Source: an uncultured Thermodesulfobacteriota bacterium
GTDB taxonomy: Bacteria > Desulfobacterota > DSWW01
Direction: 5' to 3'
Length of the DNA stretch: 46,365 bases
NCBI GenBank assembly: GCA_964439795.1
Contig: CAYTRL010000001.1
Location: forward strand, 1-46,365
A program made the position numbers and the translations under genes. Each line of letters begins with the position of its first letter. Positions within the stretch are counted from its first letter, which is position 1. Of this stretch, positions 330-43,840 are shown in pieces. The notes under the pieces are model-generated. The model was not told the origin of the DNA. It did not search any database and worked only from the letters and a program-made list of their open reading frames with translations.

Positions 330-740
330 CAGATCGGGCAGGGCCCCACCCTGCGGGGGCACATCCGGTCGTCATCCCCGTCCCCGCTTTCGTGGGGACA
401 AGCTCCAACGCGGATCCGGGGGCTGTCGGGCGGAGGGACAAACAGCCTCCTCCTTCCCCCTGCCCCTGGATTCCGGGTCATGCCCGGAATGTCGGAAAAG
501 TACAATGGGCTTGTCATCCCGGACTTGATCCGGGATCCACAGTTCAGAAGCACTTCTGGATGCCGGCCGGAGCTTGCCCCAGACTCCGATCCGGGGCCGG
601 CATAACAGAAAAAGACGTTTATCGACACCCGGAAAGTGGGAATCCAGGGGAGGCAGGGCAGGGTGCCGAAGAGCCTCCTCCTCGCCCCTGCCCCTGGATT
701 CTCCGGGTCATGCCCGGAATGACGGGTATGTACGCCTCCT
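330..740. repeat. Cluster of short palindromic REP-like intergenic repeats downstream of the HMGR-fusion gene
   Basis: Two ~52-bp direct copies (444-495 and 672-725: agcctcctcct.cccctgcccctggatt(c)ccgggtcatgcccggaatg.cgg), each containing the hairpin attccggg-N5-cccggaat. Hairpin gtcccc-N8-ggggac at about 379-398. The unit gtcatcccggacttgatccgggatcc... (512-575) recurs at 6848-6917. No convincing ORF in this region. Confidence 0.7.
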
Positions 741-754
741 TATCCGACAAGCTC

Positions 755-3553
755 CTAAGGGTGTATGCCCGTGGAGCGGGCCGCAACCAGCCCGCTGGCC
801 GTGAAGGCGTGGGAGATCGGTTGGAGATAGAACAGCATGGGTCTCGGACCGTACATCTCCGGCTTGCACTCCCAACTCCCGTTGGCCCGCTGACGGTCCA
901 TGAGAAAGGAGACTGCCTGACGGATCACCCCCCGGTAGCGGTCCGGGTCCACGCGGCAGAGTTCGGAGACCGCGATCCCGGTGGAGCTTGCACAGGAACT
1001 GGTGCCGGGGATGATCCCCCAGCCGCCATCACTGTTTACCGCCGACATCAGCGCCGCCCGGCCCTTGATGGCCGCCTGGCTTCCGGCGGGAAGGCCCCGC
1101 AGAAGAGCGGACTGAACATAAGGGAAGTTGCGGCAGAGTCCGCCCCTCCACCCGCCGTCCAGGTCCTGGTGCTCGCCGATCCACTGCACCGCCCTCTTCA
1201 TGCTGATTTCCCCATCCTGCCCACAGGCGGTGACGGCTTCCAGAATGTGCCCCAGAACCTCGGGAACCACGGCGTCTCCCGCGGACTGCCACGTGGTCCA
1301 CAGGCCCATGGCCTCCTGGTTCCGGCCGAGATAAGAGAGCCCGGAGCCCAGGGCGTTCTTAATCCTTTCCGCAATCTCCGGGTCCAGCTGGATCTTTTTG
1401 GCGTCGTTCAGGGCCAGAAGTGTGTGTGCTGTGGATTCGTTGTCTGAGATGATTCCCGGCGAATAGCCCCACCCGCCGTCCTCGTTCTGGGACCGGACCA
1501 GAAAAGCCAGGGCCTGAGCCAGGGCCTGGCTCTGGAATTCTTTGTTGTCGATAAACGCGCGAACGATCATGGACGTAGCCCACATGTCCAGGTTCACGTA
1601 CGACCAGAACCCCTGATCGTCCTGTGCCTGCACCAGGTACGAGGCCGCTTTCCGTGCTTCCACCGAGCGGTTGGTTTCCAGGAACGCAAGAAAGGCCATG
1701 GCCGTGGATACCGGGTTGTTCCAGATGGAGCCGTCGTTCCACTGCAACTCGGGCAGCAGACCGGCCACGGTCTTGTCGCCCAGGAGCACGCGCACGGAGA
1801 GCAGGTCGGACAGGGCCCAGGGTTTCAGGGACTTCCTTTTCTCCTCGGAATCGGTGTGGGACTGAAGCTGTTTGAGGATCTGCTCCTTGCGACGAAAGCT
1901 GCTCATGGACCGCTCGGTGGACGTGGCCAGGGCGGCCAGGATCTCGGTCTTGCGCATGTAGATCGGGTCAAACAGCAGGGGGTCGGACAGGTCGATGGCA
2001 CCGAACCTCTCCATGGCAAGGGAGTACGCCATCTCTTCGTAAATCTCCGCCACCCGGTGGTGGTTCTGCACGGCCTGTCCCCGGAGCCACAGCCTCGCCT
2101 GCTGCACCGTGGCTTCGTGTTCCCCGGACCGGCCCAGGGCCACGGCCACGATGGCCGTTTCAAAGATTCTCGGGCTGGAAGAGCCGGACCATTTCCCACT
2201 GGCCTCCTGGGTGTCCAGGGCAAACCCCACCGCCTTGTTGATCGCTCTCGTCAATCCACCGTCTGGTCCCCGCAGCTCGTTCAGGGCTGCCTGCACGGCG
2301 TTGGTGGTGATCTCCCCCGTCTGCACCGCCTGGCGAACCACGTGCTGCAGTTCGTCACCCCGCGCCCCCAGGCCCAGGGCGATGCTCCGGGCGTGCAGGG
2401 ACATGTGTCCCCGCTGGATCCCCTCGGAGGCCAAGGCCCGTACCGCGGCCAGGTTCTGGGCGATTCCCACGGCGGCGGCGACCCGCGCGAGATCCGACGC
2501 TTTTTCGATCTTCAACATCTTCAAGCAGGCCTGCGCCACGGGGTTGATCGACACGCCCCCCCCCACGATGCCCACGGCCATGGGGAGGGTCAGCTTGCCC
2601 GCCACGAACCGGCCGCCCTCCTCGTCCTCTTCGATCCGCCACACGGACAGGGGTTTGTAGCTTCCCTCCCGGCTGGCAAATGCGTGGGCCCCGGATTCGA
2701 TGCTCCTCCAGTCGTTCCCACAGGCGATGATCACGGAATCCACACCGTTCATGATCCCTTTGTTGTGTGTGGCGGCCCGGTACGGGTCGATCTCGGCGAT
2801 CCGGGATGCGGCCACGATCCCCTCGGCCACCCGTTCCGCGGTGAAGTTCTTGGTGACGAACGCGTTGATAGGGATCCGCACACGGCTGGTCACGCAGCGT
2901 CGGTCCGCCAGGTTGGAAAGGATCTTGAGGCCGGGTTTTCCGCCGGTCAACTCCGCAAAGGTGCCGGCCATGGCCTCGCAGGCCGTGTTGATGAGGTTCG
3001 CGCCCATGGCGTCCCGACAGTCGAGAACGATGTGCACCACCGCGTGACCGGCCGGGGCATCCACCACCCGGAACACCACGTCTCTGGCCCCGCCGCCCCT
3101 TGCCTTGAGGCGGGGATGGATCTGGTCGATCTGGCGGATGAGTTTCTCCTTTTCCGCCTCTATCTTCTTTCCTGCCGCATCCAGATCCGGAACGCCCCGC
3201 ATCTCGATCTGTCCGATCATCTCGGGCTCGTCACACTCTGTGAAGATGCCTCCCCCCTCCCGGGCGAACTTCGCACCGTTGGAGGCCGCTGCGATGACGG
3301 AAGGCTCCTCCACCGCCATGGGCACCAGGACCGTCTTCCCGTCGATGATGAAGTTGGTTCCCAGCCCCAGGGGAAGAAAGGTTACGCCGATCACGTTTTC
3401 CACGGTGGCCGAGGCAACGCGGACCCCCTCCTGAAAGGCCAGCAACAGGGAACTGTCCTTCTCGCTGAGGTCCCCGCGCTGGATCAGCAGGTCGTGCCGC
3501 TCCTCAACCGTCAGATTCCGGAACCCGGAAAGGGCTGAAGTGTCTTTCGCCAT
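755..3553 (-). CDS. Fusion protein: N-terminal class II HMG-CoA reductase plus a C-terminal ~500-aa QW-repeat (squalene-hopene cyclase / prenyltransferase alpha-alpha toroid-like) domain
   Basis: Continuous frame. ATG at 3553 (MAKDTSAL) is preceded by GGAGGA about 7 nt upstream, and the 20 codons the ORF track adds before it are unlikely to be real. HMGR motifs: ENVIG, EEPSVIAAAS, DCRDAMGANLIN, DPYRAATHNKGIMNG, GNDWR, VGIVGGG, EGIQRGHMSLHAR. The C-terminal half has 7 repeats of the type QNEDGGWGY, QDLDGGWRGG, NSDGGWGI and RANGSWE. Confidence 0.9.
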   Translation of the reverse strand: MAKDTSALSGFRNLTVEERHDLLIQRGDLSEKDSSLLLAFQEGVRVASATVENVIGVTFLPLGLGTNFIIDGKTVLVPMAVEEPSVIAAASNGAKFAREGGGIFTECDEPEMIGQIEMRGVPDLDAAGKKIEAEKEKLIRQIDQIHPRLKARGGGARDVVFRVVDAPAGHAVVHIVLDCRDAMGANLINTACEAMAGTFAELTGGKPGLKILSNLADRRCVTSRVRIPINAFVTKNFTAERVAEGIVAASRIAEIDPYRAATHNKGIMNGVDSVIIACGNDWRSIESGAHAFASREGSYKPLSVWRIEEDEEGGRFVAGKLTLPMAVGIVGGGVSINPVAQACLKMLKIEKASDLARVAAAVGIAQNLAAVRALASEGIQRGHMSLHARSIALGLGARGDELQHVVRQAVQTGEITTNAVQAALNELRGPDGGLTRAINKAVGFALDTQEASGKWSGSSSPRIFETAIVAVALGRSGEHEATVQQARLWLRGQAVQNHHRVAEIYEEMAYSLAMERFGAIDLSDPLLFDPIYMRKTEILAALATSTERSMSSFRRKEQILKQLQSHTDSEEKRKSLKPWALSDLLSVRVLLGDKTVAGLLPELQWNDGSIWNNPVSTAMAFLAFLETNRSVEARKAASYLVQAQDDQGFWSYVNLDMWATSMIVRAFIDNKEFQSQALAQALAFLVRSQNEDGGWGYSPGIISDNESTAHTLLALNDAKKIQLDPEIAERIKNALGSGLSYLGRNQEAMGLWTTWQSAGDAVVPEVLGHILEAVTACGQDGEISMKRAVQWIGEHQDLDGGWRGGLCRNFPYVQSALLRGLPAGSQAAIKGRAALMSAVNSDGGWGIIPGTSSCASSTGIAVSELCRVDPDRYRGVIRQAVSFLMDRQRANGSWECKPEMYGPRPMLFYLQPISHAFTASGLVAARSTGIHP

Positions 3554-3801
3554 TGTTTCCTCCTCATTCACGGGATATCGATAAATGTACTGAGTTCCAA
3601 GTGAAAATGTCAACGAAGCGGCGGCTTGTCTGATGGCCCTGGATCGATTATGCTCGAAAGACGCTCCTAAGAACTCGTTGAAAAATGAGGCTTATGGAGA
3701 CTGTTGAAAAAGCCAATGCCACCCCTGTACACGAGTGCAAAAAGAGGTCGCTTTTTCATATGTTCAGGGTCCCGAGCATCCCACTCCGCAGGAGAACGAA
3801 C

Positions 3802-6813: not shown

Positions 6814-6847
6814 CCGGCCGTTGAAAAAGTGGGATCCTGTGTTTTCC

Positions 6848-6917
6848 GTCATTCCGGACTTGATCCGGAATCCAGCATTTTCAAGCACCGCTGGATCCCG
6901 GCCTTCACCGGGATGAC
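6848..6917. repeat. REP-like palindromic repeat, same family as 512-575
   Basis: gtcattccggacttgatccggaatcc...ctggatcccggccttcaccgggatgac, compared with gtcatcccggacttgatccgggatcc...ctggatgccggcc at 512-575. Internal hairpin attccgga-N6-tccggaat. Confidence 0.7.
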
Positions 6918-10452: not shown

Positions 10453-10690
10453 GCGACGTTGGGCTCGGTCCGTGTCGCTACGATGACCTTCAAGGTCTAT
10501 CTCGCGACCCGGCCCTTCACCCGCCTTGCATACGAGCACTTCTTGCCCGCCGGAACAGAATAGAAAACCCTTACTATTTCCTTCCTTTTGGAAACTTCAG
10601 AACCGAAACATTGAGTTCCACGGGTGAGGGGGTAAGCCAGGCGGCCGCTGGGGAGTTCCCGGAGGACGCAGGGGCCGGTTCAGGTCTTTT
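10453..10690. repeat. Composite ~230-bp intergenic repeat, copy A
   Basis: Shares two blocks with 43590-43840: caa(a)ggtct.tctcgcgacccgg.ccttcacccgccttgcat...gcacttcttg.ccgccggaa, then about 70 nt later agccaggcggccgctggggagtt(t)cccg.aggacgc. Begins 26 nt after the cobO stop. Confidence 0.75.
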
Positions 10691-10946
10691 GAAGGCCCCA
10701 AGGACGAGGGAAGCTCCCCCGGACGCCCCCATCTGCTGCGTTCCCCCTTGCCGCGTCGCTGCGGCGACCTACGGTCGCTCCAACGTACGAAAAGTACGCC
10801 TCCGCTCCTCGGCTGCGGGGCGCCTTGCATATGGACCTTTCTCGAAAGCCGAAGCGAAAGGGTGGGGGAAATAAGGAACACGGGTGGCACCGATCTCGTT
10901 ATAGAAACCGGGTTCTTGCAGGAAAGGAATCTGATCTGGGAAGAAG

Positions 10947-11148
10947 CGGCGTTGGGCTCGTTCCGTATCGCTGCGACGACCTCAAAGGTCTGTCTCGCGA
11001 TCCGGCCCTTCACCCGCCTTGCATCCCCGCGATTTCTGCATGCCTACAACAGGCAAGCGTTCCGTCAAGTAGTTTAAGAAATCGCGTTCTTTACAGGCAC
11101 TTCTTGCCCGCTGGAATCGAATCATGAACCCTGTATTCTCAACAACCT
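10947..11148. repeat. Composite intergenic repeat, copy B (first block only, with a ~60-nt insertion)
   Basis: gcgttgggctcgttccgtatcgctgcgacgacctcaaaggtctgtctcgcgatccggcccttcacccgccttgcat ... ggcacttcttgcccgctggaatcgaatc. Ends at the stop codon of the convergent VWA gene. Confidence 0.7.
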
Positions 11149-29813: not shown

Positions 29814-30392
29814 TCAATCGACCCCATCCTCCGGGGGAGGGAACCGGTTCAGGAAGAAGTTGTCCTCCAGGGGCCTTCGTACCCGGGCCGACCGGGAAAC
29901 TGCCTGCTGCTTTTCGTTGAGCGTGGACAGGTCCCCGGGGGCACCCACGGCGATCAGGATCATCACCGTGAAATCCTCCGGGATCTGGAAGGATTTTCGG
30001 ATCAGGTCCGGCTGAAACCCGGCCATGGGACGGGCCACCAGGCCCAGTTCCGTGGCCTGGAGCAGGATGTTCTGCACCGCCATGCCCAGGTCGAACAGGT
30101 AATATTCCCTGCCGTCTCCCATGTGGCAGTCCAGGTCCTTCCTGGAGAAACCGATGATGAGAAGGGGGGCGGTCCGGGCCCAGTCGTTCCCCGGGGCAAG
30201 CGCCTCCCGTCCTTTTTCCAGTGCCTCCGGGTCATCCAGCACCAGGAAGCGCCACGGCTGGTGGTTCATGCAGGATGCGGAGAGCTGTGCGGCCTCCATG
30301 AGCGCCTTCTTGTGCGCTTGTTCCAGCGGTTCCGGGGAAATCGCCCGGAAGGCGGACCGTTTTTTCAACAGATCCAGAAATTGGGTTTCCAT
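29814..30392 (-). CDS. Nitroreductase-family protein
   Basis: LLKKRSAFRAISPEPL...AAQLSASCMNHQPWRFLVL. 192 aa. Confidence 0.8.
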   Translation of the reverse strand: METQFLDLLKKRSAFRAISPEPLEQAHKKALMEAAQLSASCMNHQPWRFLVLDDPEALEKGREALAPGNDWARTAPLLIIGFSRKDLDCHMGDGREYYLFDLGMAVQNILLQATELGLVARPMAGFQPDLIRKSFQIPEDFTVMILIAVGAPGDLSTLNEKQQAVSRSARVRRPLEDNFFLNRFPPPEDGVD

Positions 30393-30417
30393 GGAACGAG
30401 CCCTCCCTTTTGTAGTC

Positions 30418-30510
30418 GGGGTCAGGTCTTCATTCTACATTTTTCGTCTATCCGAACAAGTTCTCCAGCGCGGCACCCACGAGAAAAATGTAGAATGAAG
30501 ACCTGACCCC
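30418..30510 (-). repeat. 93-nt hairpin element, copy 1 (perfect 28-bp AT-rich stem, 37-nt loop)
   Basis: ggggtcaggtcttcattctacatttttc (30418-30445) is the exact reverse complement of gaaaaatgtagaatgaagacctgacccc (30483-30510). The element's reverse complement is about 90% identical to 39506-39598. It sits 6 nt downstream of the methyltransferase stop codon. Confidence 0.85.
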
Positions 30511-30516
30511 ACCGTT

Positions 30517-31203
30517 TCACTTCACCGATCGAGCGATGAAGAAGGTTCCCTGATTGTACCGTTCCACGGTCACGTTTCCGAACAGTCTTTCCATCTGTCC
30601 GGGGATGTCACGGAAAGGGTCCCATGCGGCATATTTTCGGTAGAGGATTTCCACCAGGGGGTTCAGGACGCGCAACGGCCCGTGGAACAGGGAGGCATCA
30701 CACACCGAGAGCACGCCCCCGGGGCGGAGGAGTTCCCTGCTGCGTTCAAGCGCCCGTTTCCATTCGGGGATGGCGCTCACCGCAAGTACGCTCAATACGC
30801 CGTCGAAGTCGGTCTCTCCGGTCTCCAGTCGAGCGGCGTCGCCCTGCACGAGCGTCACATTGTGCCATCCCTTTTTCCGGCACAGGGCCCCCGCCGCCGA
30901 CAGCACGTCCGTTGAATAGTCGAAGGCCACGATACGGCCCGCGGACCCCACGCGGTTTTCCAGGTGCACCAGGTTTCGGCCCGTGCCGCAGCCCATCTCC
31001 AGGATCCTGCCCCCGGCAGAGACGCCCAGGGCGTCCGCGGCCCGGCCCCGGATCAATCCCGGTCGGCCCAGAAAGGTCAGATAGTCCGAGGCCGCATACA
31101 GCAGGGGATGATGACCCCAGAATCGGTAGACCTTGAGGACGGTTTCAAGCTTTGCAGGCAGGGCTGTATCGGCTTTCCCGGACGGATTGAGATCCTTTTC
31201 CAT
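30517..31203 (-). CDS. Class I SAM-dependent methyltransferase
   Basis: Motif I ILEMGCGTGRNL, plus VAFDYS and LRPGGVLSV. Confidence 0.8.
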   Translation of the reverse strand: MEKDLNPSGKADTALPAKLETVLKVYRFWGHHPLLYAASDYLTFLGRPGLIRGRAADALGVSAGGRILEMGCGTGRNLVHLENRVGSAGRIVAFDYSTDVLSAAGALCRKKGWHNVTLVQGDAARLETGETDFDGVLSVLAVSAIPEWKRALERSRELLRPGGVLSVCDASLFHGPLRVLNPLVEILYRKYAAWDPFRDIPGQMERLFGNVTVERYNQGTFFIARSVK

Positions 31204-31280
31204 TCAGCCCCCCCATTCCCGTGTGCGAAGGTGTCGATCCATTGCGATTACCGGGTTTTCCCCTGGCGAATGGCACGGTT

Positions 31281-36653: not shown

Positions 36654-39500
36654 ATGGCGCATCATCGGGGAGGATATCTGGAGATCCGCGGGGCGGCGGA
36701 GCACAACCTGAAAAGTATCTCTCTGCGCATCCCGAAAAACCGGCTCGTGGTCTTTGCCGGCCCCTCGGGTTCCGGGAAGTCCTCCCTGGCCTTCGACACC
36801 CTCTACGCGGAAGGACAGCGCCGGTACATCGAATCCCTTTCCTCTTATGCCCGCCAGTTTCTCGGGCAGATGGACAAGCCACGATACGACCAGATCCGCG
36901 GGTTGAGCCCCACCATCAGCATCGAGCAGAAGGCGGCCAGCAATAACCCCCGGTCCACGGTGGGAACGATCACCGAGGTGTACGACTACCTGCGGGTGCT
37001 CTATGCCCGGGTGGGCCGCCAGCACTGCCACGGCTGCGGGCGTGCCGTGGAGCCGCTGTCCGGCCAGCAGATCGTGGACCGCGTCCTGGGGCTCAAAGCC
37101 GGCACCCGGTTCCTGCTCCTGGCTCCGCTCGTGGAGAACCGGAAGGGGGCCCACCGGGAGCTGCTGGCGGATGCCGTCCGGGAGGGGTACACCCGCGTGC
37201 GGATCGACGGCGAGGTCTGTGCCGCCCAGGAGGCCCCGGCCCTGGACAAGAACCGGAAACACACCCTGGAGATCGTGGTGGACCGGCTGGTGGCCCCGGA
37301 CCCCGCGGGGGAGAGCTACCGGGCGCGCCTCACGGATTCGGTGGAAATGGCCCTCCGGAAGGGGGACGGCCGGGTGATCTGCGCCCAGGTCTCCGGGGAA
37401 GAACGGCTCTACTCCAGGCACCTGCACTGTCCGCACTGTGATCTGGGCTTTCCCAACCTGACGCCCCAGAGCTTTTCCTTCAACTCGCCCCTGGGTATGT
37501 GCCCCGACTGCAACGGCCTGGGCATCAAACCCGAGATGGATCCGGACCTGGTGGTTCCCGATCCCACCCTGAGCGTCCGACAGGGGGCCGTGGAGCCCTG
37601 GGCCCGGGTGATGGAGCGTTCCGGGAGCTGGACCGGATCCCTGATCCACCGGTTTGCCACTGAATACGGGGTGGACTTGGACCGGCCCTGGAACCGGCTT
37701 CCCCGGAAGCATCGGGACCTGCTCCTGTACGGGTCCCGGGGCCGGAAGATCGCCATGACCCTGGAGTTCGCCTCCGGAAAGCTGGAATGGGCCCGGGCCT
37801 TCGAGGGCGTGCTCAACGAGTTGTACCGCCGGTTCCGGCAGACGAAGTCCGAAAGCATGCGCAAGTATTACATGCGCTATTTGTCCGAGGCCCGGTGCTC
37901 CTCCTGTCTGGGGAAGCGGCTCCGGCCCGAGTCGGTCATGGTCAAGCTGGCCGGCGTGAGTTTGCCGGAACTCACTGCCATGACCATACAGCAGACAGCG
38001 GACTTCCTGCAGCGCATGCCCCTGGACCGCACGGAGAAGAAGATCGCCGTGGAGGTTCTCAAGGAGATCCGGTCCCGGCTGGGGTTTCTCACCGGCGTGG
38101 GTCTGGGGTATCTCACCCTGGACCGTGCGGGGCCGTCCCTGTCCAGCGGGGAGGGACAGCGGATCCGGCTGGCCAGTCAGATCGGGAGTGAGCTCACCGG
38201 GGTGCTCTACATCCTGGACGAGCCCTCCATCGGGCTGCACCCGCGCGACAACGGGCGCCTGCTCCAGACCCTGGAGCAGCTGCGGGACACGGGAAATACA
38301 GTGATCGTGGTGGAGCACGACACCGAGACCGTCCGGGCCGCGGACCACGTAGTTGATTTCGGCCCGGGGGCCGGCGTGGACGGGGGGCGGGTGGTCTTCT
38401 CGGGTACGCCCGCTCAGATAGCCCGTTCCCGGCAATCGCTTACGGGAAAGTACCTTTCCGGAAGGCTCTGCATCGAGACCCCTGCCGCCAGGAGGCCGGG
38501 CTCCGGGAAACAGATCGCCGTGAAGGGGGCCGCCGAGAACAACCTGAAGGATCTCACCGTGGGGTTTCCCCTGGAAACCTTCGTGGCCGTCACGGGGGTT
38601 TCAGGCGCCGGCAAGAGCACCCTGGTGAACGCGATCCTCTATCCGGCCCTGCGGCGTTCCCTTTACGGAAGCACCGTGGCGGTGGGGGCTCACCGCAGGA
38701 TTTCCGGGGCCGGCGGCATCGACAAGGTGATCGATATCGACCAGCGACCCATCGGGCGCACGCCCCGGTCCAACCCGGTGACCTATACCAAGGTGTTCGA
38801 CCACATCCGCCGGGTGTTTTCCCTGACCCCCGAGTCCCGCGCCTACGGGTTCAAGCCGGGGCGCTTCTCGTTCAACGTGAAGGGGGGCCGGTGCGAGACC
38901 TGCCAGGGGGACGGGGTCCGGCGGATCGAGATGCACTTCCTGCCGGACGTGTACGTGACCTGCGAGGTCTGCGGGGGCAAGCGGTTCAACGACGCGACCC
39001 TGCGTGTGCGCTTCAAAGGGCTCAACATCGCCGAGGTGCTCGATCTCTCCGTGCGGGAGGCCATGGTGGTGTTTGCCAATCAGCCCCGGGTGATGGCGGG
39101 CCTGACCACCCTGGCCGATGTGGGGGTGGATTACCTGCGCCTGGGCCAGCCCTCACCCACCCTGTCCGGCGGGGAAGCGCAGCGGATCAAGCTGGCCCGG
39201 GAGCTTTCCCGCAGCGCCACGGGACGCACCCTGTACATCCTGGACGAGCCCACCACCGGTCTTCACCCCCACGACCTTCGCAAGCTGCTCCAGGTGCTGA
39301 ACCGGCTCGTGGACGCGGGCAACTCGGTGATCGTCATCGAGCACAACCTGGACGTGATCCGGTGCGCGGACCATGTGATCGACCTGGGACCCGAGGGCGG
39401 GGACGGCGGGGGAACCGTGGTGGTCACCGGCACGCCCGAGGCGGTCTCCCGCTGCAGGCGAAGCTACACCGGCCGCTATCTCCGGGAAGTCCTGTCATAG
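36654..39500 (+). CDS. uvrA: Excinuclease ABC subunit A
   Basis: [13 protein letters not shown], two ABC modules ([44 protein letters not shown]), and Zn-finger Cys pairs (CPHC...CPDC, CETC...CEVC). Confidence 0.95.
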
Positions 39501-39505
39501 TAGCC

Positions 39506-39598
39506 GGGGCCAGGTCTTCATTTTACATTTTTCTCGTAGATGCCGTGCCGGACAACTCGTTCGGATAGACGAAAAATGTAAAATGAAGACCTGACCCC
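39506..39598 (+). repeat. 93-nt hairpin element, copy 2 (27/28-bp stem)
   Basis: ggggccaggtcttcattttacatttttc ... gaaaaatgtaaaatgaagacctgacccc. Starts 5 nt after the uvrA TAG. The loop is 31/37 identical to the reverse complement of the copy-1 loop. Confidence 0.85.
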
Positions 39599-39638
39599 AT
39601 GATGTCTTCCGTCACGTTCCGACCGGTGGTTTTATCGC

Positions 39639-39668
39639 TTGACACACGATTCTCTCTTTCCCTATGCT
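39639..39668 (+). promoter_or_regulatory. Sigma70-like promoter upstream of the sensor kinase operon
   Basis: TTGACA (39639-39644), 18-nt spacer, TATGCT (39663-39668). Confidence 0.4.
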
Positions 39669-39978
39669 GACGAACAGGGATAAGGCTCTTTTCTTTTTTT
39701 GTCTTTCTTTCTCCTTTCCCGTCTGTTGCGTGAGCCGATCAAGAACCACCCTCCGCCCTGTAGATCCGGCTGCCGATGAAGGAGGGAGCAGGGCCTCTGT
39801 GCTTTCGGAAGTACAGGGCTCCGTTTTCTGCCGATCCATGCGGATGGCGACGGGAAGGACGACACGTGTCGATGATCGACGGTCTTGCACACGGCGACCC
39901 CCTGTTCCCTCCCGGGAAGGCCACCGGAACGGAGGCGTCTCCGGATTGGGGGATCCGATGGGGGCGGAGAGGATCACC

Positions 39979-41997
39979 ATGGATCTGAGCTCGATCTACC
40001 GAACCGTCCTGGAACATATGAATGAGCAGGTCTACGTCCGGGACCTGGACATGAACCTTCTTTATATAAATCCTGCGGCGGAATCGCTTACCGGATGGCC
40101 TGCTCAAGAGGCCATGGGAAAGAAATGCTACGAGGTGTTCGGTGACGCCGAACGGGAATGCAAAAAGGTCTGTCCCGTAGAAAAGGCGATTTCTTCGAAC
40201 CAGTGCATCTTCCATCATGAGGGCAGGCTGAAAACCAGAGGCGGCCGTGTCCTGGACATGCAGGTTTCCATTTCACCGCTCCTTACCGGGGCAGAAGTGG
40301 CGGGCGCGGCCGTGGTCATGCAGGACATCACCCGCCTGAAGAAGGCCGAGGAAACCCACGTCAAGGCCCTGGCCGCCCTGGAAAAGGAGGTGGAGGAAAG
40401 CAGGAATCGATATTCGGTCTCGCTGGACGCCGTGCCGGATTTAGTGTTTGAGATCGCCCTGGACGGCACGTTTCTGTACGTGAACCGGTTCGCCGTAGAG
40501 ACCCTCGGCTACTCCAGGGAAACGTTCGGCAGGCTCAACCTCGCGGATCTTCTCGACGAGGAAGCGCTGAAGGAGTGGGGGGAGCGGTACGCCCGGTTGC
40601 TCGAGACAAAGGATCTGGGGGGAGCGTACAGGCGCAATGTGCGGAAGAGCGACGGAACGTTTGTTCCCCTGGAAGCGCATGCGGTTTTTCTCGAAAGGCG
40701 CGGCCGGCAGCCCACGATCCTGGGCGTAGCGCGTCTCATCTCCGAACGGCTGGAACGGGAAGAGCGGATGGAGAAGCTGAACCGTCTCCGGGAGGAACTG
40801 CTCAAACCCGCCGGCCTTCGCGAGAAGCTCGCCATCATCTCCGAGGGGATCGTATCGGTTTTCAGGGCGGATCTGTGTCGTATATGGGTCACGAAACCCG
40901 GCGATCTCTGTGAAACAGGCTGCATTCACAGCCAGGGCGAAGAGGGCCCCCACCTTTGTCGCTCTCGGCATCTCTGTCTCCACCTCCTTGTCAGCTCCGG
41001 ACGATACACGCACACCGACGGGGAAGTCCACGGTCGGGTTCCGTTCGGATGCTACAAGATCGGGAAGCTGGCTTCCGGAGAATATCAGAAATTTCTCACC
41101 AACGAGGCCGCGCAAGAGCCGGCCATCCACGATCAGGAGTGGGTAAGAGAGCGGGGCCTGGTCTCCTTCGCCGGGTACAGGCTCCTTTCCGCGCAGGAGG
41201 ATGTCATCGGCGTCCTGGCCCTTTTCAGCCGGAACGCCCTTTCTCCGGAGGAGGACGCGTTGCTGGAAGGGCTTGCCGGTACCGCCTCCCAGGTCATCCA
41301 GACAGCCGAGGTGGAGGACGCCTTGCGGCAGCATGCGGAGTTGCAAAAGGTTCTTCTCCGCGAGGTCAACCACCGGGTCAAGAACAATCTGTCCGCCATC
41401 ATCGGAATGCTGTACATGGAAAAAGATCATGCCGAGGGCCAGGGGGACGCGTCCTATCTGAACGTGCTTGGAGATCTGGTCGGGCGTGTGGAAGGACTTT
41501 TAACGGTCCACAGCCTGTTGTCCGCATCCGGCTGGCATCCGTTGAATTTAACTGAGCTTTGCGAACAGGTGGTCAACGGTTCGCTGCAGGGAGTGCCTTT
41601 GGACAAAACCGTTTCGGTCGACGTGAACCGGAGCACCGAAAGCATATCGAGCAATCAGGCCCATCACCTCACCCTGGTCATCAATGAGCTCGCAACCAAT
41701 ACGGTCAAGCATGCGCTGGCCGAAAACGATGCCGTAAAAATCCACATGGATATCTTTCGGGAGGGAGAGGATGTCCATATCGTCTTCAGAGATGACGGGC
41801 CCGGCTATCCCCGGGCCATGATGGAAGGGGATTTGCGCCGGGCGGGGGTCGGGTTCGATCTCATCGTGGGTATCGTCCGGGAAACTCTGCGGGGCAGGGT
41901 GCGGCTCGATAACGACAACGGAGCCGTGACGACCCTTGTCTTCAAACCCGGGAAAGACCAGGAACCGATGGGAGGCGGTACGTTTGAAGGGAAATGA
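39979..41997 (+). CDS. PAS-PAS-GAF sensor histidine kinase with a HisKA_2-type H-box
   Basis: PAS: VLEHMNEQVYVRDLDMNLLYINPAAESLTGW. Second PAS: PDLVFEIALDGTFLYVNRFAVETLGYSRE. H-box: EVNHRVKNNLSAIIGML. ATPase: LVINELATNTVKHA, FRDDGPGYP. Start at 39979 (GGAGAGGA 6 nt upstream) or 39958. The upstream 100 codons of the ORF track are not protein-like. Confidence 0.8.
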   Translation: MDLSSIYRTVLEHMNEQVYVRDLDMNLLYINPAAESLTGWPAQEAMGKKCYEVFGDAERECKKVCPVEKAISSNQCIFHHEGRLKTRGGRVLDMQVSISPLLTGAEVAGAAVVMQDITRLKKAEETHVKALAALEKEVEESRNRYSVSLDAVPDLVFEIALDGTFLYVNRFAVETLGYSRETFGRLNLADLLDEEALKEWGERYARLLETKDLGGAYRRNVRKSDGTFVPLEAHAVFLERRGRQPTILGVARLISERLEREERMEKLNRLREELLKPAGLREKLAIISEGIVSVFRADLCRIWVTKPGDLCETGCIHSQGEEGPHLCRSRHLCLHLLVSSGRYTHTDGEVHGRVPFGCYKIGKLASGEYQKFLTNEAAQEPAIHDQEWVRERGLVSFAGYRLLSAQEDVIGVLALFSRNALSPEEDALLEGLAGTASQVIQTAEVEDALRQHAELQKVLLREVNHRVKNNLSAIIGMLYMEKDHAEGQGDASYLNVLGDLVGRVEGLLTVHSLLSASGWHPLNLTELCEQVVNGSLQGVPLDKTVSVDVNRSTESISSNQAHHLTLVINELATNTVKHALAENDAVKIHMDIFREGEDVHIVFRDDGPGYPRAMMEGDLRRAGVGFDLIVGIVRETLRGRVRLDNDNGAVTTLVFKPGKDQEPMGGGTFEGK

Positions 41998-42634
41998 GAA
42001 CATTCGCGTCCTGATCGTGGAAGACGACTACCTCATCGGTGAAACGATAAAGCGTACGCTGAAAACGATCGGTTATGAGGTGGCCGGGAAAGCCTCCAAT
42101 GGGCTTGAAGCCGTGGAGATGGCCTGTTCCCTGCGGCCGGATATCGTTCTCATGGATATCCAGATGCCGGATCTCGATGGCCTGGAAGCCACCCGCCGGA
42201 TCCAGGAATGTTGCCCCGTGCCTGTCGTGGCCCTGACCGCGTACGAATCACAGGATCTCGTGAACAAAGCAGGCGAGGTGGGTGTTGCCGCCTACTTGAC
42301 CAAGCCGCCAAGACGTGCCGAGATCGAAAGAGCTGTCACGATCGCCATGGCGCGACATCGGGACATGATGGAATTGCGCCGGCTCTACGGGGAACTGGAG
42401 ACCCAAAAAAACGAGATCGAGAAAGCCCTGGCTGAAATCAAGATCCTTCGAGGGATTCTCCCCATTTGTTCCCGATGCAAAAATATCCGAAACGACAAAG
42501 GGTACTGGGAAGAGGTTGAAGCATATGTCGGCAGGTATTCAGAAGCTGCATTCAGCCACGGTTTATGCCCGGGTTGCATGGACAAGCTTTATGGCGATGA
42601 AGACTGGTACAAGAAAAGCCAGGGCGAAAAATAG
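41984..42634 (+). CDS. Response regulator: receiver domain, coiled-coil linker, and a C-terminal CxxC...CxxC module
   Basis: IRVLIVEDDYLIG...IVLMDIQMPDLDG...VVALTAY...YLTKP. C-terminus: ILPICSRCKNIRNDKGYWEEVEAYVGRYSEAAFSHGLCPGCMDKLYG. Likely TTG start at 41984 (GGGAGG 8 nt upstream) overlapping the kinase stop; an ATG at 41936 is also possible. Confidence 0.8.
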   Translation: MKGNENIRVLIVEDDYLIGETIKRTLKTIGYEVAGKASNGLEAVEMACSLRPDIVLMDIQMPDLDGLEATRRIQECCPVPVVALTAYESQDLVNKAGEVGVAAYLTKPPRRAEIERAVTIAMARHRDMMELRRLYGELETQKNEIEKALAEIKILRGILPICSRCKNIRNDKGYWEEVEAYVGRYSEAAFSHGLCPGCMDKLYGDEDWYKKSQGEK

Positions 42635-42691
42635 CTTCCCGGCATTCGCTGCAACCTCCCCTGCCGTCCATGCGGAACCGCCCGGACCGGA

Positions 42692-42720
42692 TTGACAAGG
42701 TGGATCTTCCTCCCTAAACT
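42692..42720 (+). promoter_or_regulatory. Sigma70-like promoter upstream of lpxA
   Basis: TTGACA (42692-42697), 17-nt spacer, TAAACT (42715-42720), 46 nt upstream of the ATG. Confidence 0.45.
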
Positions 42721-42766
42721 GCTCACAATCTGAAACCCGGAAGCGATCTCTTCGAGAGAAACGACC

Positions 42767-43588
42767 ATGTCAATGATTCATCCCACGGCAATCGTGGACC
42801 CCACCGCGAAGATCGCGGACGGGGTGGAAATCGGGGCCTATGCCGTGATCGAGGGGAACGCGGAAATCGGGCCCGGAACGGTCATCCGTCCTCACGCCAT
42901 GATCCGGCAGTTCACGACCATGGGGTCCGGCAACTTCGTGGATTCTTTTGCCGTCCTGGGCGGGAATCCCCAGGACCTGAAATTCGAACCGGAACAGCTG
43001 ACCTGCCTTCGGATCGGAAACGACAATGTGTTCCGCGAGGGGGTGACCATCTCCCGGGGCACGGGGACCGGGAGCGAGACCGTGGTGGGCAACCAAACCT
43101 ACTGGATGGCCAACGCCCACGCCGGCCACAACTGTGAAATCCAGGACCGGGTGATCGTGGTCAACGGGTCTCTGCTGGCCGGTCACTGCACCGTCGGGCC
43201 CGATGCCGTCCTGCCCGCGAACGGATCCGTTCACCAGTTCTGCTGGGTGGGGGAGGGAGCCTTTTTTCAGGGGGGCGCTCAGGTCAGCATGCACGTTCCG
43301 CCCTACGTGCTCTGTGCCCGGGACAACTGCGTGATGGGCCTGAACTCCGTGGGCATGCGCAGAGCCGAGGGGGTCACCCCCGGGGAGCGGAAACAGATAC
43401 GGGAGGCGTTCCGGATTACCTACCAGTCCGGCCTGACCCTGCAGGAGGCGCTGGCAAGGATGGAGGGCCTCGAGGACTGGACCGGGATCGCCGTGAAGTT
43501 CCGCGATTTCATCCGAAAGATTCTCACCGCGTCGCCCCCCCACAACCGGGGGTTGTGTCCGGCGCGTAAAGACCGCGTCCCCCACTGA
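42767..43588 (+). CDS. lpxA: Acyl-ACP--UDP-N-acetylglucosamine O-acyltransferase
   Basis: MIHPTAIVDPTAKIADGVEIGAYAVIEG hexapeptide repeats, ANAHAGHNCEI, GSVHQFCWVG, NSVGMRRAG-type C-terminal helical domain. Confidence 0.9.
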   Translation: MSMIHPTAIVDPTAKIADGVEIGAYAVIEGNAEIGPGTVIRPHAMIRQFTTMGSGNFVDSFAVLGGNPQDLKFEPEQLTCLRIGNDNVFREGVTISRGTGTGSETVVGNQTYWMANAHAGHNCEIQDRVIVVNGSLLAGHCTVGPDAVLPANGSVHQFCWVGEGAFFQGGAQVSMHVPPYVLCARDNCVMGLNSVGMRRAEGVTPGERKQIREAFRITYQSGLTLQEALARMEGLEDWTGIAVKFRDFIRKILTASPPHNRGLCPARKDRVPH

Positions 43589-43589
43589 T

Positions 43590-43840
43590 TCGGCTTCCGA
43601 TACACGCCCTCAAAGGTCTGTCTCGCGACCCGGACCTTCACCCGCCTTGCATCCTTCCTCCCCCTTGCATACGTGCACTTCTTGTCCGCCGGAATCGAAT
43701 CGAGAAAATCCGATACATTCCCGCAATCCCCATAAGGTGAATACAGGAACTGAACAATAGAGGCTCTTGAGGGAAGCGGGGAAAAGCCAGGCGGCCGCTG
43801 GGGAGTTTCCCGTAGGACGCGTTCCGTTTACAGGTCCGGT
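43590..43840. repeat. Composite ~230-bp intergenic repeat, copy C
   Basis: ctcaaaggtctgtctcgcgacccggaccttcacccgccttgcat...gcacttcttgtccgccggaatcgaatc, then agccaggcggccgctggggagtttcccgtaggacgc. Begins right after the lpxA stop, and its distal end overlaps the 3' end of the convergent lipoprotein gene. Confidence 0.75.

Follow-up and report, generated by a model that had tools for sequence, protein, structure and literature searches.

A hairpin element of 93 nt occurs twice in the window, as we call the whole stretch of 46,365 nucleotides from an uncultured Thermodesulfobacteriota bacterium that was analysed here, and it is probably a non-autonomous, non-coding mobile hairpin repeat of a previously undescribed family. 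Such an element would be moved in trans by an enzyme that is encoded elsewhere and makes no staggered cuts. An earlier note, made from the letters alone, had put forward three roles: a miniature mobile element, a protein-binding palindrome, and a 3' stabiliser or processing site. The first is supported by two dispersed copies with identical boundaries, by relatives in unrelated contigs and by the absence of the element from L049, the closest syntenic relative found. A palindrome serving as a host operator is unlikely, because the same arm lies beside unrelated genes in genomes of 40-67% GC. Stabilisation or processing of a 3' end is a plausible consequence of the 28-bp duplex.

The two copies and their gene context

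The two copies, their parts and the adjoining genes are as follows.

30418..30510, minus strand: copy 1, hairpin element of 93 nt with a perfect 28-bp stem
30418..30445: arm A of copy 1, plus strand GGGGTCAGGTCTTCATTCTACATTTTTC
30446..30482: loop of copy 1, 37 nt, identity to the copy 2 loop 84%
30483..30510: arm B of copy 1, reverse complement of arm A at every position
39506..39598, plus strand: copy 2, hairpin element of 93 nt with 27/28 stem pairs
39506..39533: arm A of copy 2, GGGGCCAGGTCTTCATTTTACATTTTTC
39571..39598: arm B of copy 2, pairing with arm A as an inverted repeat
29814..30392, minus strand: nitroreductase gene, start codon 25 nt after copy 1
30517..31203, minus strand: gene for a SAM-dependent methyltransferase, stop codon 6 nt before copy 1
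36654..39500, plus strand: uvrA gene, stop codon 5 nt before copy 2

The perfect 28-bp inverted repeat with a 37-nt loop reported at 30418-30510 is exact in coordinates and sequence, its arms being 100% complementary, and the second copy reported at 39506-39598 is present as well, with 27 of 28 stem positions paired. The stem core is indeed AT-rich: the inner 19 nt of the arm have 26% GC versus about 62% for the window, and the loop has 59%. Copy 2 is the reverse complement of copy 1, with 90% identity over exactly 93 nt; copy 1 read on the minus strand thus has the orientation of copy 2 on the plus strand. Their similarity ends sharply at GGGG and CCCC, and the flanks are unrelated; the tips read GGGGTCAGG and CCTGACCCC. 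Four occurrences of the arm core in the window compare with none in 100 shuffles, and the copies are by far the strongest local inverted repeats of the window. Folded as RNA, they reach -58.4 (copy 1) and -52.8 kcal/mol (copy 2), with z = -7.3 and -6.6, while copy 1 folded as DNA gives -31.7 kcal/mol (z = -10.9); a very stable hairpin is formed by either strand of the element. A chance origin of the two 93-nt palindromes is excluded.

Between the copies, 3 of 56 arm positions and 6 of 37 loop positions differ, which is not a significant disparity (Fisher p = 0.15). Among the three arm changes, two together make up a compensatory exchange of a C-G for a T-A pair (chance P ~0.018): arm position 18 is C in copy 1 and T in copy 2, its partner at position 76 being changed to match, and a matched C or T variant on both arms is also seen in L004a and L011, two of the related elements described below. 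The part of the loop that adjoins one arm aligns, in a profile, with the sub-terminal sequence of other family members; for copy 1 this profile alignment covers positions 9-68 in one orientation versus 38-67 in the other. None of the Rfam covariance models matched the window at its gathering score.

Gene calls agree with the placement of copy 1 between the methyltransferase stop (30517) and the nitroreductase start (30392). Copy 2 follows uvrA, and a gene for a PAS histidine kinase begins about 360 nt past it. On the chromosome the copies are inverted relative to each other, and the genes upstream of them lie on opposite strands, so both have the same orientation relative to the incoming gene. 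Readthrough of the stop codon, or a SECIS element, was considered and rejected, as copy 2 comes after two in-frame stops (TAG TAG) and copy 1 lacks a downstream open frame.

Each copy also contains a degenerate module resembling an outward promoter.

30432..30459, minus strand: module of copy 1, TTGTTC (30459-30454), 16-nt spacer, TAGAAT (30437-30432)
39557..39584, plus strand: module of copy 2, TCGTTC, 16-nt spacer, TAAAAT

The former aims at the nitroreductase gene and the latter at the PAS histidine-kinase gene. In AT-rich members of the family, the well-kept arm and the sub-terminal sequence, read outward, give TTGAAA-N17-TAGAAT, matching a promoter at 10 of 12 positions, and a promoter scan calls this motif in three loci. 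The same scan of the window called neither copy's module, whose -35 hexamers match at 3/6 and 2/6 positions. An extended -10 promoter was rejected, since TG directly abuts TAGAAT and the TGn spacing is not kept. The decayed -35/-10 module at one end of the element may give residual transcription into the downstream gene.

This arrangement raises the question whether the hairpin is a signal in cis that the host has selected, i.e. a stabilising, terminating or processing structure at 3' ends or a portable promoter for the following gene, and not a mobile unit at all. A stop codon lies 5-6 nt ahead of both copies, which are oriented alike with respect to it, related elements follow a stop codon by 8 nt (L021) and 21 nt (L014), L049 has a different hairpin with 17-bp arms at the same place after uvrA, and the compensatory arm change and the outward TTGAAA-N17-TAGAAT of the AT-rich members would also fit such a function. 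However, a U-tract is absent 3' of copy 1, as the earlier note had remarked, and likewise of copy 2; a terminator scan calls neither hairpin, and the 28-bp AT-rich stem with its 37-nt loop and no T-run is far larger than an intrinsic terminator. No Rfam family matches, the promoter hexamers are degraded in the window copies, the partner arms have decayed in L014 and L004, where the hairpin is not maintained, and the same sequence lies beside unrelated genes in unrelated genomes. We regard a purely host-selected signal as very unlikely.

A mobile hairpin repeat may nevertheless affect the genes between which it has settled. In our proposal, the element would be co-transcribed with the upstream gene and fold into a 28-bp RNA duplex that would block 3' exonucleases and be cut by RNase III; cutting would uncouple the upstream from the downstream cistron, and the remnant of the outward promoter may feed the downstream gene. 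RNase III needs roughly two helical turns of duplex, which 28 bp exceed. Since the stem begins 5-6 nt past the stop codon, a terminating ribosome would open only its base. Expression from methyltransferase to nitroreductase, and from uvrA to the histidine kinase, may accordingly be uncoupled by a long RNA duplex.

Further repeats and one unusual gene were seen in the window. An intergenic direct repeat of about 100 nt (containing GACCTCAAAGGTCTGTCTCGCGACCCGGCCCTTCACCCGCCTTGCAT and GCACTTCTTGCCCGCCGGAATCGAAT) is present in three copies at 10453-10567, 10946-11128 and 43604-43706 and has no Rfam match. A second palindromic repeat family, GTCATYCCGGACTTGATCCGGRATCCA with arms CCCCTGGATTCC and GGAATCCAGGGG, has several copies near the start of the window (414-701, 6842-6903). 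The open frame of 952 aa at 755-3613 (minus strand) combines an HMG-CoA reductase domain with squalene-hopene-cyclase-like domains and represents an unusual fusion or else a pair of genes run together into a single ORF.

Relatives in the population, in L049 and in other genomes

In five further assemblies of this population copy 1 is fixed, and a single variant of one base occurs among them; copy 2 is present in all other population assemblies examined. All of them carry both copies, which gives no hint that the element is active at present. In the genome itself, two copies were found in about 55.6 kb, a further 9.2 kb past the end of the window containing no more.

L049 (70.6% GC, same gene order, UvrA 86% identical) lacks both copies, and 22.8 kb of it contain no member of the family. 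Compared with it by blastn, the window has two specific blocks.

30410..31275: block 1, with copy 1, the methyltransferase gene and its upstream region
39496..42775: block 2, with copy 2 followed by the PAS histidine kinase and a response regulator

The comparison shows that the copies were gained in the lineage of the window or lost in that of L049. On one flank of each copy L049 differs, which leaves no clean empty site; that the element was inserted is thus inferred and was not seen directly. Nor is an empty site offered by the closest homologues of the methyltransferase (70% identity), which lack synteny. At the place of copy 2, directly after uvrA, L049 has a different hairpin (L049 12841-12954), with 17-nt arms AGCCCGAAGAACGCCGT and ACCGCGTTCTTCGGGCT and an 80-nt spacer, which starts inside the uvrA stop codon.

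One edge of each window-specific block is a hairpin copy, and these blocks are both of the gene gains in the comparable 17 kb. The copies might thus be recombination sites that mark captured gene cassettes, an attC-like joint for accessory blocks, the more so as an AT-rich MAG contig has 6.2 kb with restriction-modification and further defence-related genes between two directly oriented arms, one of them next to toxin-antitoxin genes. But the association with gene gain comprises only two cases, the hairpin marks the 3' edge in one block but the 5' edge in the other, and any repeat would survive at intergenic breakpoints. An attC site was also rejected on its sequence, the tips GGGGTCAGG and CCTGACCCC lacking RYYYAAC and GTTRRRY cores, and no integrase was found in the window or at any of the related loci. 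Cassette capture seems very unlikely. A dif/Xer site (the 28-mer has no 11-6-11 dyad) and a CRISPR repeat (the copies are inverted, not direct) were likewise dismissed.

The earlier note had advised a search for copies beyond this stretch, and they were found in unrelated metagenome contigs and in several sizes. We scanned for exact patterns in a collection of one genome per species, which yielded two solo arms in the AT-rich MAG contig, and in metagenome contigs, where members turned up in L004, L012, L014, L016, L021, L011 and L007; the large scans found exact matches only. Besides the two window copies there are further members in at least seven unrelated contigs, which span 37-67% GC and have arms up to 28/28 identical to the window arm. 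A profile built from the scan hits exposed weaker partner arms, and four elements proved complete, with inverted arms at both ends.

L014 652-838: complete element of 187 nt (L014a or L014b, as for the next)
L014 1372-1530: complete element of 159 nt
L004 983-1334: complete element of 352 nt
L011: complete element of about 370 nt

Further hits are solo arms followed by a common sub-terminal sequence, CCTTTTTCAAWTG. Members of the L014/L004 type combine the arm with about 125 nt of conserved sub-terminal interior, the conserved internal sequence of related elements amounting to 100-300 nt. A structured RNA in the 125-nt interior (L004/L014) was rejected, the consensus fold reaching only -6.75 kcal/mol and Rfam being negative; a search of eight related loci against Rfam at E<=1 returned nothing relevant. 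In the AT-rich elements one arm is almost invariant and its partner has decayed (6-8 mismatches or a deletion), so hairpin pairing is not kept everywhere. Such near-invariance of a single arm hints at a constraint on that end that is not transposition. The contigs L007 (at its start) and L026 (at its end, 1346, in the loop or at the arm) break inside the element; that contigs of independent assemblies end in loop or arm is the behaviour expected of repeated or palindromic sequence. No family match was found in plasmid, phage and viral collections, and strings of the element sequence had no match in the literature.

Several neighbours of the relatives deserve mention. In the AT-rich MAG island (L003), a 59-nt repeat, AGCCTGCGGTTACCGCTTGCCCAACCAAAAACGCAAATCAGTATGGTGTCCCCAAAATT, recurs at 853-911, 1138-1196 and 2769-2827; it lies directly beside the arm in L016 (~520-580) and has a diverged form in L001 (~1820-1870). 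Four overlapping direct repeats at L003 3697-3762, spaced by 11 nt, have a 33-nt unit, GACCCCTTTTCCGCCCCCTTAGCGCCCCCTTAG, two being identical; they begin in the arm tip and reuse its last bases. Fragments of a RelE-like toxin gene (W, then K or E, then G, any residue and AERDLRNIDRQQVP) directly adjoin solo arms on their inner side in L003 (~3560-3660) and L021 (~780-830), and the intact antitoxin-toxin pair lies about 110 nt from the arm in L012 (1-380). The RelE-like assignment was made on the translations and not by a profile; arm and toxin-antitoxin module may have travelled together.

Target sites, parent elements and insertions in the arm tips

With regard to mobility, the element is a small non-coding unit with terminal inverted repeats, and its copies are dispersed and have unrelated flanks, as in MITEs. 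The direct duplication of the target site that goes with these is missing: duplications, which the earlier note had suggested looking for, were found in none of five complete copies (copy 1, copy 2, L014a, L014b and L004a). The flanks read gtagtc and accgtt for copy 1 and tagcc and atgatg for copy 2, and neither these nor the flanks of the other three share a direct repeat of 2-9 nt. This suggests that the mobilising enzyme is not a classical DDE cut-and-paste transposase; an enzyme acting on hairpins or single-stranded DNA, or a site-specific recombinase, is more likely. A coding role of the arm was rejected, as the frames ending in KNVE and KCRMKT before the stop are interrupted in most copies and broken by single-base indels.

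No transposase was found between arms at any locus examined, and an autonomous IS or transposon sharing these ends turned up in none of the genome, metagenome, viral, plasmid and phage collections, of which the large ones were scanned for exact matches. The element could still be what remains of the ends of a bigger transposon or IS (Tn3-like, for instance) that lost its interior and became an ordinary MITE. Tn3/Tn21-family inverted repeats begin with GGGGTC, and so do the arms. Tn3-family terminal inverted repeats are about 38 bp long, run from GGGG to TAAG and are accompanied by 5 bp of duplicated target. The window-type arms also bound elements of 160-370 nt, and the arm with its sub-terminal sequence of about 125 nt resembles one end of a parent element. 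The fact that IS1111-family members target Tn21-family terminal repeats, given here as PMC11187229 cites it from Partridge & Hall 2003, would fit as well. Against this origin, only the GGGG(TC) start matches: the arm has 28 and not 38 bp, an inner TAAG is absent and no 5-bp duplication is seen, nor any other target duplication in the five complete copies, not even at copy 1 with its perfect arms. A transposase remnant in L004a is not supported either, the HTH-like and C-terminal peptides having no Pfam or NCBIfam match. Decay from a larger transposon is in our view improbable.

Alternatively, the arms may be REP-like units of a REPIN, which would be mobilised as a single-stranded DNA hairpin by a single-copy RAYT (HUH tyrosine transposase). 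The 28-nt units in inverted orientation, the spacer of 37 nt, the solo arms and the extragenic location all match the definition of REPINs (PMC3116915), the inverted doublet with its spacer folds as a hairpin, target-site duplications are lacking at the copies, and IS110-family elements insert into the arms (see below). Yet a lone arm has a folding energy of 0 kcal/mol, equal to that of its shuffles, and lacks the palindromic core of a REP; the roughly 55 kb of this genome that were read contain no RAYT gene; and the conserved interior of 100-300 nt in related elements is unlike REPIN spacers. The arms are moreover identical across genomes of 40-67% GC, whereas REPIN populations, according to bioRxiv 10.1101/2021.07.10.451892, are inherited vertically together with their RAYT. 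A REPIN proper is thus unlikely, and we return to a mobile hairpin repeat of its own kind.

The earlier note had cautioned that transposase-related features flanking further copies would expose the element as simply an IS end. IS110-family genes do adjoin arms elsewhere, but the junctions place the IS inside the tip. In L007, where an IS110-family transposase gene lies beside an arm, the left junction has GAAGACCTGA followed by TACCATGA on the IS side, and the right one TATGAG followed by TGACCCCTTT. Deleting the IS together with one TGA restores an intact arm tip: the left flank ending in GACCTGA and the right flank beginning with TGACCCC make up the tip if the shared TGA is counted once. Relatives of the L007 transposase (64-70% identity) show the same junctions in other contexts. 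Insertions of this family between CCTGA and CCCC of arm tips were found in L007 (1-1577), L045 (1-2084) and L034-L043, and in L045 both arms of one palindrome hold an IS copy, in mirror orientation. As the arm is split by the IS, it serves IS110-family elements as a target and is not their end; its tip is a preferred landing site for them. With the window element these interrupted palindromes have no more than the tip GGGGTCAGG in common, and both loops and inner arms are different, so that a wider set of hairpins with this tip exists.

The inserting clade measures about 1.45-1.55 kb and has a long non-coding region downstream of the transposase gene, as known for IS1111-type members (PMC11187229). 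In each variant, its own left target flank is repeated immediately ahead of a conserved block in the downstream non-coding region, TTAGAGCGGCC: GACCTGA, TAGCCTGA and GACTTGA are the copies for the targets AGACCTGA, GTAGCCTGA and AGACCTGA, respectively. The flank copy looks like a bridge-RNA or seekRNA guide that co-varies with its target, which fits the RNA-guided target choice published for the IS110 family (PMC11187229, PMC11208160, PMC12288879). Known targets of this family include REPs and transposon inverted repeats (PMC11187229, PMC12288879).

One might go further and see in the tips GGGGTCAGG and CCTGACCCC the mark of a hairpin superfamily that moves free of duplications by an unassigned mechanism, has spread between distant phyla, forms joints of gene blocks and offers landing pads for which RNA-guided IS110 recombinases are programmed; this would be a bold extension, and we doubt that it holds.

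Comparison with known systems

The targets of IS110/IS1111 elements, i.e. REPs for IS621 and ISPpu9/10 and Tn21 repeats for IS4321, are comparable in that the arm tip is likewise hit at a fixed point, between CCTGA and CCCC, and in one orientation. This likeness concerns what lands in the arm and not the nature of the arm, and the window itself has no such IS. The arm tip constitutes a natural target of a clade of IS110-family recombinases of the bridge-RNA/seekRNA type.

Canonical MITEs (RUP, ERIC-like elements and the Tn3-derived TIMEs) are similarly small, non-coding and dispersed, with terminal inverted repeats and size variants that have common ends (PMC10969869). The window family differs from them in lacking target duplications and, in the collections searched, a parent IS with matching ends.

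To REPINs and BIMEs the element is similar as an inverted doublet with a conserved unit of about 25 nt and a less conserved spacer, forming hairpins in single-stranded DNA or mRNA. Singlet remnants, the extragenic location, the missing target duplication and the role as an IS110-family target are further shared traits (PMC3116915; PMC12288879). It differs in that the window arm has no internal palindrome, that no RAYT occurs in about 55 kb, and that the arms are shared across distant genomes. A REPIN population numbers tens to hundreds of copies per genome and is associated with a RAYT gene that the units flank.

The Correia elements of Neisseria (CREE or NEMIS), of ~100-150 bp with inverted repeats of ~26 bp, fall into the same size class as the window element with its 28-bp arms. 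Correia elements duplicate a TA target. The window element has no target duplication and no sequence similarity to them, and its family spans genomes of very different base composition. Correia elements lie by or between genes, are co-transcribed as long hairpins and can create promoters at their ends, to which the outward -35/-10-like module of the window element corresponds. CREE are bound or cut by RNase III (PMC2649163).

The window element fails a defining test of every known family considered. If our reading is right, it is of a kind already familiar, i.e. another family of miniature palindromic repeats, here in uncultured bacteria, and for annotation it accounts for two odd AT-rich palindromes in this genome. 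The identical 28-nt arm in genomes of very different composition implies horizontal spread of a non-coding element. Terminal inverted repeats without target duplication place the element between MITEs and REPINs; taking the comparisons together, it would seem to work most like the Correia elements and to look most like a REPIN.
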